Below, piece after piece: positions 45,439 through 59,852 of a DNA stretch of 64,000 bases. Numbering within the stretch: position 1 is the stretch's first letter; each line of letters starts with the position of its first letter. A model generated the notes under the pieces. That model was not told the origin of the DNA, did no database searches, and saw only the letters and a program-made list of their open reading frames with translations. The position numbers and the translations under genes are program-made. Source of the stretch: Sedimentisphaerales bacterium (lineage in GTDB: Bacteria > Planctomycetota > Phycisphaerae > Sedimentisphaerales > SM23-30); the NCBI GenBank assembly GCA_963666285.1, contig OY762711.1; one strand, given 5' to 3'.

Positions 45439-45807
45439 TTAGCCCTTCTTACCTGCTACTGTCTTACGTGGACCTTTACGAGTGCGTGCATTGCTCTGAG
45501 TGTTCTGACCACGTACCGGAAGACCACGACGATGACGCAGACCACGGTAACAGGCGATTTCTTTCAATCGGGTAACATTCTGAGCTAACTGACGACGCAA
45601 ATGACCTTCAACAATATAGTCACGGTCAATTATACCCGCTATACGAGTGATTTCTTCTTCATTAAGATCTCGCGCTTTCATGTTAGGATCAACATTAGCT
45701 TCTTCAATGATCTTCTTTGAAAAATGACGACCGATACCCTGGATATAGGTCATTGCAATCCACAACGGTTTGTTATTTGGTATGTCAACACCTGCGATAC
45801 GAGGCAT
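45439..45807 (-). CDS. rpsM: 30S ribosomal protein uS13
   Basis: [25 protein letters not shown]. Confidence 0.98.
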
Positions 45808-45822
45808 ATTTCAAGTCTCCAG

Positions 45823-45942
45823 TTACTTACCTTGACGTTGTTTGTGACGAGGATTTGCTGAACAAATTACTCTGACAACGCCTTTACGTTTAACTATTTT
45901 ACAACTTTCACAAATTTTCTTTACTGAACTACGAACTTTCAT
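45823..45942 (-). CDS. rpmJ: 50S ribosomal protein bL36 (Zn-binding type); not in ORF track
   Basis: Hand translation [39 protein letters not shown]. Confidence 0.97.
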
Positions 45943-54918: not shown

Positions 54919-55491
54919 CTAATCGTTTAAATCTACTGTTATATAAATATGACTTGCCAGTTTTGTAAATGGTACGGCACGACCTCTGTCCTTCGGACGC
55001 CAGCGTCTTGTTCCGCGACGTATGCCCGCCCCATCTACTCGTGACTCACTGATATACAGGTTTGTTATATCAACTTCCTGCTCGTCCGCATTTGCTATCG
55101 CACTCTTTAATACCTGGCTAACATAGTATGCTGCTCTCTTGTTGGTAAACTTCAGAATATCTAGTGCATCCTGAACATTGCGATCGCGAATCATATCAGC
55201 AACTAAACGTACCTTGCGTGGTGCCATCGGGCAGAACTTATGTGTAGCAGACCAGGTCTCTAATGCATCTTTGCCTACGCTTAATGCTGAGGCCAGCTTC
55301 TGAACTTCTTCTGCTTTTGGACGCGGACTATATAAACCGCGTTCCCAGTTCTTTACCTTACCAAGGCACTTCTTAAACTCTCTGGCTTTGAGCTCTGTAT
55401 TTACATTCCCCGGCATCAGTGCTCTTGCTAGAGCATCTATGGTCATTCCGGACTCTTCTCGACAGTATTGTAATTTTTCACCGTTTAGCAT
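54919..55491 (-). CDS. rplV: 50S ribosomal protein uL22 fused to N-terminal XRE-type HTH domain
   Basis: aa 80-190: PRKVRLVAD.IR, LKSAIANA, RPKDRGRA, SHI; aa 1-79: L..CREESGMT..LA...NWERG..P....LASALSV. Confidence 0.92.
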   Translation of the reverse strand: MLNGEKLQYCREESGMTIDALARALMPGNVNTELKAREFKKCLGKVKNWERGLYSPRPKAEEVQKLASALSVGKDALETWSATHKFCPMAPRKVRLVADMIRDRNVQDALDILKFTNKRAAYYVSQVLKSAIANADEQEVDITNLYISESRVDGAGIRRGTRRWRPKDRGRAVPFTKLASHIYITVDLND

Positions 55492-55560
55492 CAGTGTTTT
55501 CCTAAATCCAGGTTAATAATATATATTACTAAATCCTAAATCATTTTTATATTCAAGCGG

Positions 55561-55833
55561 TTATTTTTTCTTCTTATCTGCTCCATGACCGCGATAGTTG
55601 CGTGTCGGAGAGAATTCACCTAGCTTATGACCTACCATATCTTCGGTCACATATACTTTATGGAACATTCTTCCATTATGAACCATAAAAGTATAACCTA
55701 CAAACTCCGGTACGATTGTACAACGACGTGCCCAGGTCTTTACCGGATCTTTTTTGTTGGTTTCTTCCAACTTCATAACCTTTTTGTACAACTTTTCATC
55801 TACAAAAGGGCCTTTTTTTAATGAACGTGGCAT
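55561..55833 (-). CDS. rpsS: 30S ribosomal protein uS19
   Basis: [23 protein letters not shown]. Confidence 0.98.
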
Positions 55834-55869
55834 AGCCTTTTCCTTTTAATTCCTTTTACGGTTTATCTT

Positions 55870-56721
55870 TTACAGTACCAACTGTCCGTAATGTTTACTC
55901 TTACGTCTACGGATAATATGTTTGTTACTTGCTTTTCGCTTAGCACGGGTCTTGCCGCCCTTAGCATAAAGACCTGTTGGTGAACACGGATGACGACCAC
56001 CATTTGATCGGCCTTCACCACCACCCATTGGATGGCTTACTGGGTTCTGTGCCTTACCGCGAACGTGTGGCCTGCGACCCATGTGGCGTTTACGACCGGC
56101 TTTTCCTATTCTCACCAGCTGGTGATCTGTATTTCCTATCTGACCGATTGTTGCTCGGCATGATGCATGAATCATTCGCATTTCACCGCTTGGCATGATC
56201 AGTGTGATATATTTTTCATCTTTACCGGCAATACGAGCTACTGATCCGGCTGACCGTACCAGTTTGCCGCCCTGCCCTGGATTCAGTTCAATATTATGAA
56301 CTTCCATACCATTCGGTATGTTTTTCAATGGCATGCAGTTTCCTACTTTTGGCTCTACCTTGTCGCCTGACTCGATTGTTTCGCCTACTGTCAGACCTAC
56401 CGGAGCAAGGATATAGCTCTTTTCGCCGTCTGAATATTGCACTAACGCTATATGACAGGTACGGTTTGGATCATATTCAATTCCAATTACTTCTGCTGCC
56501 ATATTATCTTTCAGACGCTTGAAATCTACCATACGGTAAATCTTACGGGCGCCACCACCACGGAAACGGACTGTTGTCTTTCCACTGTGGTTTCGGCCGC
56601 CATGCTTCTTTATACGCTTGACCAGTGTCTTTTCGGGTTTGGTCTTGGTAACTTCTGCGTAATCGTTTACTGAAGCATTTCTTCTACCGGCACTTGTCGG
56701 CTTGTAAACACGAATACCCAT
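55870..56721 (-). CDS. rplB: 50S ribosomal protein uL2
   Basis: [15 protein letters not shown]. Confidence 0.98.
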
Positions 56722-56835
56722 TTATTATCTTTCCTTAATTCTCTATGCCGTTTCAACCCATTAAGAAACAGCCGTTTATCTTTATGGCTTCGCTGTCGTT
56801 TCGACGGCTCAACCTGAGTTCACTACCTGACTTAA

Positions 56836-57114
56836 CTAGAACAAATCTATTCTGCTGTCTGCATCTAATACTACGACAGCTTTTTTCCAGTCGGCCTTGT
56901 GGCCCATTACCCATCCGCGACGGGCTGGCTTGCCCTTGCGTGTCATTGTTCTGACATCTATTACTTTTACACCGTAAATCTCTTCGATAGCCTGCTTGAT
57001 ATCAGTCTTATTGGCTTTCTTGTCTACTTCAAAAATGTAAGCATTCAAGAATGACTGCTGCATTGTACCTTTTTCTGTTATTAACGGTCTTTTTATTACT
57101 TGATACTTGTCCAC
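56836..57114 (-). CDS. rplW: 50S ribosomal protein uL23
   Basis: PLITEK, ANK.DIKQAIE, WKKAVV; GTG start. Confidence 0.97.
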   Translation of the reverse strand: MDKYQVIKRPLITEKGTMQQSFLNAYIFEVDKKANKTDIKQAIEEIYGVKVIDVRTMTRKGKPARRGWVMGHKADWKKAVVVLDADSRIDLF

Positions 57115-57138
57115 TTAATTAACCTCAGTACAAGGATT

Positions 57139-57774
57139 TTAGTTTTCTGCTTTTACCTGCGGGTTTACCAGGCAATCAAGAGACTTCTTTGTCAAAAGAA
57201 GCTTACGTTTGTTAACGATATCGCCTGCATTTAACTGGTCAACTTCCATAACATCTACTTTATTGATATTACGTATTGACTTGTATACATTTACATCATA
57301 ATCGTCGATTGCTACCAAACAGCTGCGGTCGATCTTTAGATTTTTCAGAATCAATGCAAACTCTTTGGTCTTGGGTGCTGTAAATTCTATCTTGTCAATT
57401 ACCATCAGGTCTTCTGCCTTGATCTTTGCCAGAATTGCACTGTTACGTGCCAGGCGACGCTGTTTCTTTGGCATACGCTGTGAAAAATCGCGGGCATACT
57501 TGGCAAACGCTACACCGCCACCACGGCGAACACATGTGCGGTTGTTACCGACTCGAGCTCTACCTGTTCCTTTTTGGCGGTATAGTTTACGGGTTGAACC
57601 CGCTTTCATGCCACGGCTCTTATTCGCAGCTGTACCCTGACGCTTATTTGCATGGTACATAACTATGGCCTGCTTCAAAAGAGCATTACGAACTACTGTA
57701 CCTAATGCAGCCGGATCTATCTGAACTTTTTCTAGTTCCTGGCCTTCTTTATTATATACTGGTAACTCTATCAT
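57139..57774 (-). CDS. rplD: 50S ribosomal protein uL4
   Basis: RQKGTGRAR, RGGGVAF, PKTK. Confidence 0.98.
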   Translation of the reverse strand: MIELPVYNKEGQELEKVQIDPAALGTVVRNALLKQAIVMYHANKRQGTAANKSRGMKAGSTRKLYRQKGTGRARVGNNRTCVRRGGGVAFAKYARDFSQRMPKKQRRLARNSAILAKIKAEDLMVIDKIEFTAPKTKEFALILKNLKIDRSCLVAIDDYDVNVYKSIRNINKVDVMEVDQLNAGDIVNKRKLLLTKKSLDCLVNPQVKAEN

Positions 57775-57795
57775 TTTTTCGCCTTACTATTCAGC

Positions 57796-58437
57796 CTAGT
57801 TCTTAAACTTAGCTTTCTTAACCATTACGTAACCGTTATTTGGGCCTGCTACAGCACCTTTAACAATTATCAGATTATTTTCTGTGTCTATTCCCATTAC
57901 TTTAAGATTCTTGGTGGTGCAACGCTCGTGACCCATATGACCGGCCATCTTTTTACCTTTTCGGATACCGCGACTGCAACCGGCACTTCCACTGTTTGAA
58001 CCGATACCACCTGGATGACGGTGCTTACGTTCACAACCATGTGTGGCGTCCATACCCTTAAAGTGATGACGTTTCATTACACCGGCGGTACCTTTTCCTT
58101 TGGTGGTGCCGATTACGTCAACGAAATTAATTTCTTCAAATATCTCTACTGTCAGCTGCTGACCTAACTCTACTTCTGCCGGACTATCAATACGATCTTC
58201 ACGTACAAAATATTTTGGAGCTGTTTCTGCTTTAGCTGCATGACCTACTGCAGGTTTCTTGCGACGGTTTTCTTTTACGTCGTTAAAACCTATCTGTACG
58301 GCATTATAACCATCTGACTCTTCTGTCTTGACCTGCATTACAGAACAAGGACCAGCCTGAATCAGGGTAACAGGTACTGACTTACCCCCTTCATCATACA
58401 TTCTGGTCATGCCGACTTTTTTTCCTAAAAGCATCAT
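57796..58437 (-). CDS. rplC: 50S ribosomal protein uL3
   Basis: GKKVGMT, DGYNAVQ, KGKG..GVMKRH, GKKMAGHMG. Confidence 0.98.
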   Translation of the reverse strand: MMLLGKKVGMTRMYDEGGKSVPVTLIQAGPCSVMQVKTEESDGYNAVQIGFNDVKENRRKKPAVGHAAKAETAPKYFVREDRIDSPAEVELGQQLTVEIFEEINFVDVIGTTKGKGTAGVMKRHHFKGMDATHGCERKHRHPGGIGSNSGSAGCSRGIRKGKKMAGHMGHERCTTKNLKVMGIDTENNLIIVKGAVAGPNNGYVMVKKAKFKN

Positions 58438-58539
58438 AGTTAATACTTCCTGTTATTTTCTAAAAATTTAACGTTCTGTTTATTTGCAAAGTTACGATCT
58501 GTTTAACGAGCAGTTGATCCTTTTCGACCAACTGAATTA

Positions 58540-58848
58540 TCACACACGTATCTTTACAAAAACACCCGCAGGTACAACAAGCCGATTCAAGGCTTCTACT
58601 GTATGCGGGTTGGCGTTGTAAATATCTATCAATCTCTTGTGGGTTCTCATTTCGAACTGTTCGCGAGATTTCTTGTCAATATGCGGCGAACGTAGCACGG
58701 TGTATCTTTCAATACGTGTAGGCAACGGTACTGGACCACTGACTTTTGCGTTGGTACGTAGTGCTTGCTCAACGATCTCTTTTGCCGAGGCATCCAGGGC
58801 TTTATGATCGTACGCTTCCATTCTGATTCTAATTTTTTCGGCTTCCAC
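58540..58848 (-). CDS. rpsJ: 30S ribosomal protein uS10
   Basis: [30 protein letters not shown] start after GGAG. Confidence 0.98.
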
Positions 58849-58929
58849 TAAGCCAACTCCGTCTTATTTTAATGGTTTATATTGTCTTAGCGCCTGCATA
58901 CACTGCAAGCATATTGCGATAGACCCGTA

Positions 58930-58958
58930 ATTGTAACGTTCTATGACAATTCTGTCAA
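58930..58958 (-). promoter_or_regulatory. Sigma70 promoter, proximal to S10 operon
   Basis: TTGACA-17 nt-TACAAT, AT-rich upstream. Confidence 0.75.
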
Positions 58959-58991
58959 CTAAAACAAAAAACAAAAATAATTTATAATTAG

Positions 58992-59148
58992 CAACTTGAA
59001 GCTTACGCGGGGGAAATAGTGAAGGAATAAAGAGTTATGTACCGATAACTTTATCTGATAAAGTTCGTCCTCTCGGCACTCTCTTGTCTAACCTACACTT
59101 CACGCGAAAATCCTGTGTCCAGAATATCTCCGCTCGCTTCAGTTGAGA
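58992..59148 (-). ncRNA. Candidate rod-shaped ncRNA or long leader upstream of rpsJ
   Basis: Seven nested helices from 5' CAACU/AGUUG to apical AACUUUAU/AUAAAGUU; begins right after a strong promoter. Confidence 0.55.
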
Positions 59149-59154
59149 CGGGAC

Positions 59155-59183
59155 ATTATATGTGCTTATTCTTGTACCGTCAA
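59155..59183 (-). promoter_or_regulatory. Sigma70 promoter (distal), stable-RNA-like
   Basis: TTGACG-17 nt-TATAAT, T-tract UP element, GC-rich discriminator GTCCCG. Confidence 0.8.
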
Positions 59184-59244
59184 TAAAAAAATAAAAAAAA
59201 TGATCCCGAAAAGAATTATTCTGCTATATTGCCTTTAAAATAGT

Positions 59245-59279
59245 AAAGCAGACTGTAGTAAATACAGCCTGCTTTTTTT
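59245..59279 (-). terminator. Terminator after cheW
   Basis: AAAGCAGGCUGUA-UUUAC-UACAGUCUGCUUU. Confidence 0.7.
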
Positions 59280-59360
59280 GCAACTAATTAGAAATAAGAG
59301 AGTTAAAGTAAAATTACTTATTACGTCTCTTCCTGACCGTCCCGGCCCTTATCGGCTTTC

Positions 59361-59852
59361 TTAAAATCCGGATAACTGGGTACCTGCCAGTACCTGGTCG
59401 ATATCCAGCAATATCTTGACATTATCGCCTACTTTTCCCATCCCAAGAATATAATCTGTATTTACCTGGTTGCCAAACTCAGGTGATGGCTCTATCTGCT
59501 CTTCCTGGATATCCAGAACTTCAGATACATTATCCACAATTATACCAACCTGAACACTGCTTCCGTCGAGATCAACCTCAACTACTATAATACAGGTTTG
59601 TTCTGTTACCTCTTTTTCTTCCATACTGAAGCGACTGCGTAAATCTATTATTGGTATTACCTGGCCACGCAGATTGATCACACCTTTCACCTCTGACGGT
59701 GTCTGTGGGACACTTGTAATATCCTGATAACCGATTATTTCTTTTACTTTCAGTATTTCCAGCCCAAATTCTTCCTGGCCTAATGCAAAAGTTAAATATA
59801 AGCCAGATTTTGCTCGTGAGCCGCGACTTTCAATGTTTGTTGTTCCTGACAT
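59361..59852 (-). CDS. cheW: Chemotaxis adaptor CheW
   Basis: YLTFALG.E.FG, VKGVINLRGQVIPIIDL, GIIVD.VSEV. Confidence 0.95.
   Translation of the reverse strand: MSGTTNIESRGSRAKSGLYLTFALGQEEFGLEILKVKEIIGYQDITSVPQTPSEVKGVINLRGQVIPIIDLRSRFSMEEKEVTEQTCIIVVEVDLDGSSVQVGIIVDNVSEVLDIQEEQIEPSPEFGNQVNTDYILGMGKVGDNVKILLDIDQVLAGTQLSGF

Follow-up and report, generated by a model that had tools for sequence, protein, structure and literature searches.

Bacterial ribosomal protein uL22 (PF00237, TIGR01044) is one of the four proteins that surround the exit of the ribosomal tunnel, an area described as a docking platform (in the accessible part of PMC5071890). Forms of uL22 with extra terminal residues have been described, such as chloroplast uL22c and NF008917, a family in which L22 is fused to an unknown domain. 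The XRE regulators (for example C.Csp231I, BswR, SinR, ImmR, the 434 repressor and CapH) share a five-helix cro/C1-type HTH fold that is also used on the ribosome by MBF1/EDF1. According to the available portion of PMC7486125, the HTH of EDF1/Mbf1 is placed between h16 and h33 of the rRNA and that of archaeal MBF1 associates with ribosomes. Likewise, AP2 transcription-factor domains have been recruited to a mitoribosome, where they bind rRNA (PMC11652630, for the part available). Expression of the S10 operon involves leader RNAs that are structured, located 5' of rpsJ and restricted to one lineage, like the uL4 leader of Escherichia coli and the S10 leader of Firmicutes. In E. coli, the operon is controlled by uL4 via the leader and the accessible text of PMC10931766 mentions no regulatory role of uL22. 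More generally, such r-leaders are often clade-restricted and their ligands are hard to guess (PMC7247131, accessible sections).

The window, i.e. the whole stretch of 64,000 nucleotides analysed here, includes an S10 operon in which rplV, flanked by rpsS and rpsC and present in a single copy, encodes an XRE domain fused to uL22 (Table 1). The core sequence, the fold and the operon position are those of bacterial uL22. In contrast to the other extended forms, the addition is a complete N-terminal domain of 70–80 aa of the transcription-factor type, and the score with NF008917 (48.6 bits) is below the cut-off (526). The domain has the fold of XRE regulators (Z 8–10) and, like them, a W-x-x-G-x-x-x-P motif after helix 3. 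However, it differs from them by an insert in the HTH turn, by variable base readers, by its fusion to a ribosomal protein and by the lack of any operator found. The HTH of EDF1 is also similar to the domain model (Z 7.0), but MBF1/EDF1, in which an N-terminal MBF1 or zinc-ribbon domain precedes the HTH, is a free archaeal and eukaryotic factor of the small subunit, whereas the HTH of uL22 is bacterial, covalent and belongs to the large subunit. In the fused protein, the HTH comes first and uL22 after it, and no MBF1 family match was obtained. The leader that precedes this operon resembles the known S10 leaders in the features listed above and has no match in Rfam. No published report of the fusion or of the leader was found in a search that lay mostly outside subscription journals; 'L22' does not occur in the accessible part of PMC7203096. 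Whole foreign domains are rare in core bacterial ribosomal proteins, and this one is fixed in an order and two further families.

Table 1. Features of the rplV fusion gene and of the region upstream of the S10 operon (coordinates in the window)
Feature	Coordinates	Strand	Support or remark
rplV, XRE-HTH::uL22 fusion, 190 aa	54919..55491	-	Sole rplV match in the genome
XRE/cro-C1 five-helix N-terminal domain, aa 1-79	55255..55491	-	Pfam HTH_3, model helices, fold search
uL22 core, aa 80-190	54922..55254	-	PF00237 and TIGR01044 above cut-off; Foldseek TM ~0.9 to uL22 chains
AGGA ribosome-binding site	55500..55503	-	8 nt 5' of the rplV ATG
HTH-turn insert lengthening helix 3, aa 26-41	55369..55416	-	Alignments A1 and A2
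Asn48-Trp49, invariant, end of helix 3	55345..55350	-	70/70 in A2, 50/50 in A1
uL22 tunnel beta-hairpin insertion, 3 residues, aa 158-160	55012..55020	-	Order-specific within the class
Promoter-like site P1, TTGACG-17-TATAAT, upstream of the S10 operon	59155..59183	-	Same position in 43 loci of the order
Structured leader RNA: closing stem, invariant internal loop AGCGA / G..AGU, variable hairpin	59087..59148	-	Anchored alignment
Promoter-like site P2, TTGACA-17-TACAAT, near rpsJ	58930..58958	-	Similar sites in many relatives

An earlier note on this DNA had described a 190-aa uL22 with an N-terminal XRE domain at the rplV position, preceded by an AGGA upstream of the ATG at 55491, and had considered the fusion to be obligatory; all three proposals are supported. 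PF00237 matches aa 82–186 at 98.5 bits (cut-off 28) and the score with TIGR01044 is 93.1 bits (cut-off 73.65). The isolated aa 1–79 match HTH_3 at 25 bits (E 1.9e-5; cut-off 23) in two separate stretches, though the score falls under the cut-off, to 21.5 bits, with the whole 190-aa protein. Among the fused members, matches with E≤0.01 were obtained with HTH_3 for 20 of 70 and with HTH_31 for 31 of 70. The AlphaFold model of the whole fused protein has a pLDDT of 92 and a pTM of 0.80, the latter value suggesting a defined pose of the two domains. None of the nine codons ending at W80 is ATG, GTG or TTG, an ATG occurs in this junction stretch in just 4 of the 69 fused genes, and a search of the genome gave a single match to rplV and a single match to the profile of the HTH domain. 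No second rplV was seen in this genome, nor any close stand-alone relative of the domain, either there or among 1.84 billion representatives searched with its profile. An artefact of assembly or annotation, including an error at the junction, is ruled out by the conservation of the fusion in 139 genomes, by the junction sequence and by a contig from run X1 (this run may be the source sample), which covers 54979–59400 with zero differences.

The source names seen call the fused protein plain L22, one record begins downstream of the HTH domain, and a protein atlas search returned L22 clusters only. A public record of a fused gene, P0276 (cluster of P0155), is annotated as a 122-aa L22, whereas five of the seven members of this cluster have 177–184 aa; annotation can therefore hide the HTH domain. 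The uL22 core has a particularity of its own, the three-residue insert in the tunnel hairpin, which is found in all 40 sequences of the order and in none of the 67 other sequences of the class; an insert of equal length is present in five of six planctomycetes outside the class. As other insertions in the uL22 hairpin affect the tunnel, this one could alter its constriction.

The model of the domain (pLDDT 92.8) includes five helices (aa 4–14, 18–25, 35–50, 60–69 and 74–77), in agreement with the XRE fold, and among solved folds the isolated domain is nearest to XRE-type repressors and controllers (for VIA, Z 10.0 and rmsd 1.6 over 67 aa). The matches to TniQ in a PDB sequence search (E ~1e-3) were taken as generic HTH likeness. 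A large-subunit chain of the Toxoplasma mitoribosome, 9g6k_Lj, gives a middling score with the domain (Z 7.3, rmsd 3.5). The extra segment that had been noticed between the HTH helices is recovered in the alignments as an insert whose length ranges from 0 to about 16 residues; it is absent from one genome (L073), most relatives have a shorter form, R-x-G-L, and the genus of the window has a longer one.

The Asn-Trp pair that ends helix 3 is invariant in both alignments, A1 consisting of 50 sequences picked from search matches and A2 of 70 rows found by their NW motif. Besides, G29, G52 and P56 are mostly conserved, as are several basic positions (K/R6 in 63/70, K/R47 in 56/70, R27 in 46/70), and the mean net charge of the domain is +3 to +5. 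The position of the conserved residues in the helices suggests that they are exposed at the surface. The domain has a dN/dS of 0.02–0.28 in 11 of 12 close pairs, the last one being saturated (simple counting, ungapped), and is thus under purifying selection. Its mean identity within the order is 42%, versus 53–88% for ten ribosomal proteins of the S10 operon. If the domain is compared with the 434 repressor, the bases would be read mainly by positions 43 and 44, and position 18 would correspond to the Gln of helix 2; all three are variable among orthologues, N48 alone being invariant. The R11/E50 pair, which we take to be a feature of canonical XREs, is found in about 8–9 of 48 sequences of the order, including that of the window, whose family keeps the pair. 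On sequence grounds, such a pattern suits a fold that grips the backbone of a nucleic acid better than an orthologous sequence-specific repressor.

A survey of the rplV architecture across Planctomycetota, which the earlier note had recommended, indicates that the fusion is common to one order and to two families of Phycisphaerales, order and family names (Sedimentisphaerales, Phycisphaerales) being derived from the names of the matches. In the order of the window, it was found in all 139 matched genomes (141 searched) and in all eight families; in each of the 139, the best match starts at or before residue 45 of the query, i.e. inside the domain, and the open frame has at least 181 codons. 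In the order of G155, the fusion is present in all 40 genomes of family f5 (39/39 without G616, marked unpublished) and in all 11 genomes of family f109. One locus of the latter (L123, from G567) has a frameshift inside the HTH-coding part of rplV, which is probably a sequencing error. The other four families of this order (94 genomes matched) score as plain uL22, and in 26 loci fetched from them, only 24–76 nt separate rpsS from the uL22 core, which is too short for the HTH domain. In the rest of the class, there is no fusion among the matches listed, and 20 fetched loci as well as five further genomes are all unfused. Outside the class, no fusion was found among 150 listed rows of a phylum search of 401 genomes, six loci being checked. 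Among the 1.84 billion representatives, the best single-domain matches are either rplV fusions or pieces of such fusions, broken or chimeric, and the remaining profile matches are multi-repeat or generic XREs. The fused uL22 is a real, clade-defining variant, fixed in one order and two further families.

In a FastTree phylogeny of five other S10 proteins (113 rows, eight near-duplicates dropped), fused lineages appear at three separate positions, and each of them has an unfused family as its sister. In the tree of uL22 cores, f5 and f109 group with unfused Phycisphaerales (support 94), and their cores lack the three-residue hairpin insert of the window's order. Transfer of whole fused rplV genes is opposed by this core tree, but a single fused clade of cores is not rejected by the AU test (p 0.113; one in three of the rows of the order used). 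The fused domains form one group relative to nine ordinary XREs (support 88; 73 columns), within which f5 and f109 (95) are joined to the part of the order outside the window's own family, f1 (96). Furthermore, a metagenomic fusion, P0157, combines an f5-like domain with a core that is nearest to an unfused family. These results make a single origin of the domain likely and suggest that the HTH module would have been transferred onto resident rplV genes; an ancient gain followed by many losses would also be compatible with the data.

The role that we favour, with roughly even confidence for and against, is that the XRE fold has been co-opted on the surface of the 50S subunit, near the tunnel exit, as a permanent appendage that contacts RNA. 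An XRE-type repressor domain would have been fused onto the N-terminus of uL22 and kept as a folded and permanent part of the subunit, where it would sit at the place of uL22, next to the exit of the tunnel on the solvent side. It would not read DNA sequences; K6, R27, K/R47, N48, K/R51 and K55 would grip the rRNA backbone or a neighbouring ribosomal surface, and this grip may help the assembly or the stability of the 50S subunit or shape the exit platform. Because there is neither another rplV nor an internal start, every ribosome would carry the domain. The variation of the base readers 43 and 44 while the basic residues and N48 are kept and no operator is found supports this reading, and an identity lower than that of the other ribosomal proteins is expected of a peripheral appendage. 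The HTH of EDF1/Mbf1 and the AP2 domains of the mitoribosome are precedents. Sister families that live without the domain count against it, and the invariance of Asn48 in the recognition helix is compatible with a specific contact to a nucleic acid off the ribosome as well. Among the roles put forward in the earlier note, the rRNA-binding extension is the one that fits best. An appendage of this kind predicts an extra folded domain beside the tunnel exit of these ribosomes, visible by cryo-EM, and the fused and unfused sister families offer a natural comparison for the recruitment of a DNA-binding fold to RNA.

A broader scheme, which we consider rather unlikely, would make of the repressor domain captured by uL22 a regulator titrated by the ribosome, bound to 23S rRNA when assembled and to the S10 leader or to DNA when free, its module having spread between orders by in-place recombination into rplV. 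If true, this would be a bacterial counterpart of MBF1 incorporated in the ribosome and a new kind of ribosomal-protein feedback. Its part concerning RNA can be considered separately: surplus HTH-uL22 would bind the S10 leader and shut the operon, the HTH giving specificity as uL4 does in E. coli. This control, unlikely in our view, draws on the presence of the leader, which begins a few bases 3' of P1. In 36 of the 45 loci of the order, the 400 nt that precede rpsJ include the k-mer AGCGAGC, versus 1 of 24 in f5 and f109 and 1 of 44 unfused loci. When more upstream sequence is taken in, 43 of the 45 loci (41 distinct once duplicate species are removed) show the full motif with its invariant internal loop, homologous sites being those of L047–L050 and L067–L105. 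In 27 sequences outside f1, 91% of the cells are paired, versus 29–37% in slid controls, the structure having been drawn from the same sequences. Nine of 15 pairs, mostly in the inner hairpin, changed on both sides (0/500 shuffles). With a covariance model, 49 of 61 genomes of the order give a single copy each, nearly all about 3.5–4 kb upstream of rplV, whereas the unfused loci of the class, sister family included, give none. The model misses the window's own family genome-wide and, in a search of the loci, detects six f1 loci weakly and not that of the window, whose leader copy rests on the anchored alignment.

However, the model does not detect any leader in f5 and f109, the other two fused families (24 loci), either, so that the ligand need not be HTH-uL22, and clade-restricted r-leaders are common anyway (PMC7247131, accessible sections). 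The loop resembles helix 41 of the 16S rRNA of the same genome, and a post-hoc descriptor fits four rRNA sites, helix 41 among them (0.6 expected). This likeness would point to a protein of the small subunit such as uS10, which we take to contact the helix 41 region. Since it is present in one of three fused lineages and possibly mimics the small subunit, the leader is treated as a finding separate from the fusion. It is a candidate new r-leader, on the novelty of which the Firmicutes S10 leader (PMC7247131 Figure S1) may bear, and it adds a candidate control element of the S10 operon outside the lineages in which such control was studied. Many members outside f1 have a second conserved stem further down (AAGGAAGGC / GCCUUUCCU), and in the genus of the window the leader region can form a long alternative hairpin. 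Elsewhere in the window, positions 45775–45886 on the minus strand resemble the alpha-operon leader RF00140 weakly, with 24 bits for a gathering score of 38.

Action on DNA, either as a sequence-specific regulator of S10 or rRNA promoters in the free state or as a non-specific tether between ribosome and nucleoid, is distinctly unlikely. The XRE fold is intact, N48 is invariant on the recognition helix and the family of the window keeps the R11/E50 pair of canonical XREs. Nevertheless, the presumed base readers are not conserved, and the insert in the HTH turn differs in length between relatives. Moreover, no shared operator was found from -60 to +50 of the S10 promoters in 43, 16 and 6 fused genomes, only promoter boxes. 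An ATT-N8-AAT palindrome, the sole one enriched, occurs in 23 of 43 genomes, above shuffles, but it was rejected as an operator, as it mostly corresponds to the final codons of fusA. In many relatives (L048, L077, L082, L085, L087–L090 and others), fusA ends with a stop codon that overlaps the -35 box of P1. The idea of the earlier note that the free protein could act on DNA as an autoregulator of the S10 operon is weakened by the variation of positions 43 and 44, by the low conservation of the domain and by this negative search. The region that it had designated for EMSA/ChIP (58850–59190) does contain a conserved element, which is a covarying RNA and not a DNA palindrome. In the genome of the window, cheW replaces fusA upstream of the operon, and P1 and the leader are retained.

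A role of the domain as a docking site at the exit, for trigger factor, SRP, PDF/MAP or some lineage-specific protein, seems improbable too. It would suit the location of uL22 on the exit platform (PMC5071890, accessible part) and the three-residue hairpin insert of the order; however, the conserved face is basic, which fits nucleic acid better than most protein partners, and both bL32 and the C-terminal helix of PDF are unchanged. Protein bL32 is kept in 57 of 60 genomes, fused or unfused, which led to rejection of the domain as a replacement of bL32. The C-terminal helix of PDF is similar in fused and unfused genomes, no altered tail being seen among 24 PDF tails (from 26 loci). The domain is therefore not replacing a lost part. 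In a comparison of 34 sequences, neither a column nor a helix length of the 23S rRNA follows the fusion through its three lineages: 11 columns exceed the 0.6 threshold, none is clean, and the best one (position 1992 of G000) is shared by an unfused family, while H24, H25 and H98 vary independently of the fusion among the rows listed. These negative results for bL32, PDF and 23S rRNA weaken the idea of a replacement part and also count against the 50S appendage. A taskless passenger, entrenched as the source of the start codon and packed on the first uL22 strand, would account for the poor conservation (42%), the lack of any rRNA or protein covariate found and the existence of unfused sisters, but this is very improbable, as a whole 70-aa fold and its polar or basic N48, K6 and R27 are retained in three lineages and a short deletion would give back a normal uL22.

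Helix 98 of the 23S rRNA is itself variable within the order: it is absent in the genus of the window (L167, the 23S rRNA of G000, positions about 2760–2770) and in G411, and present or much expanded in other members (L171).
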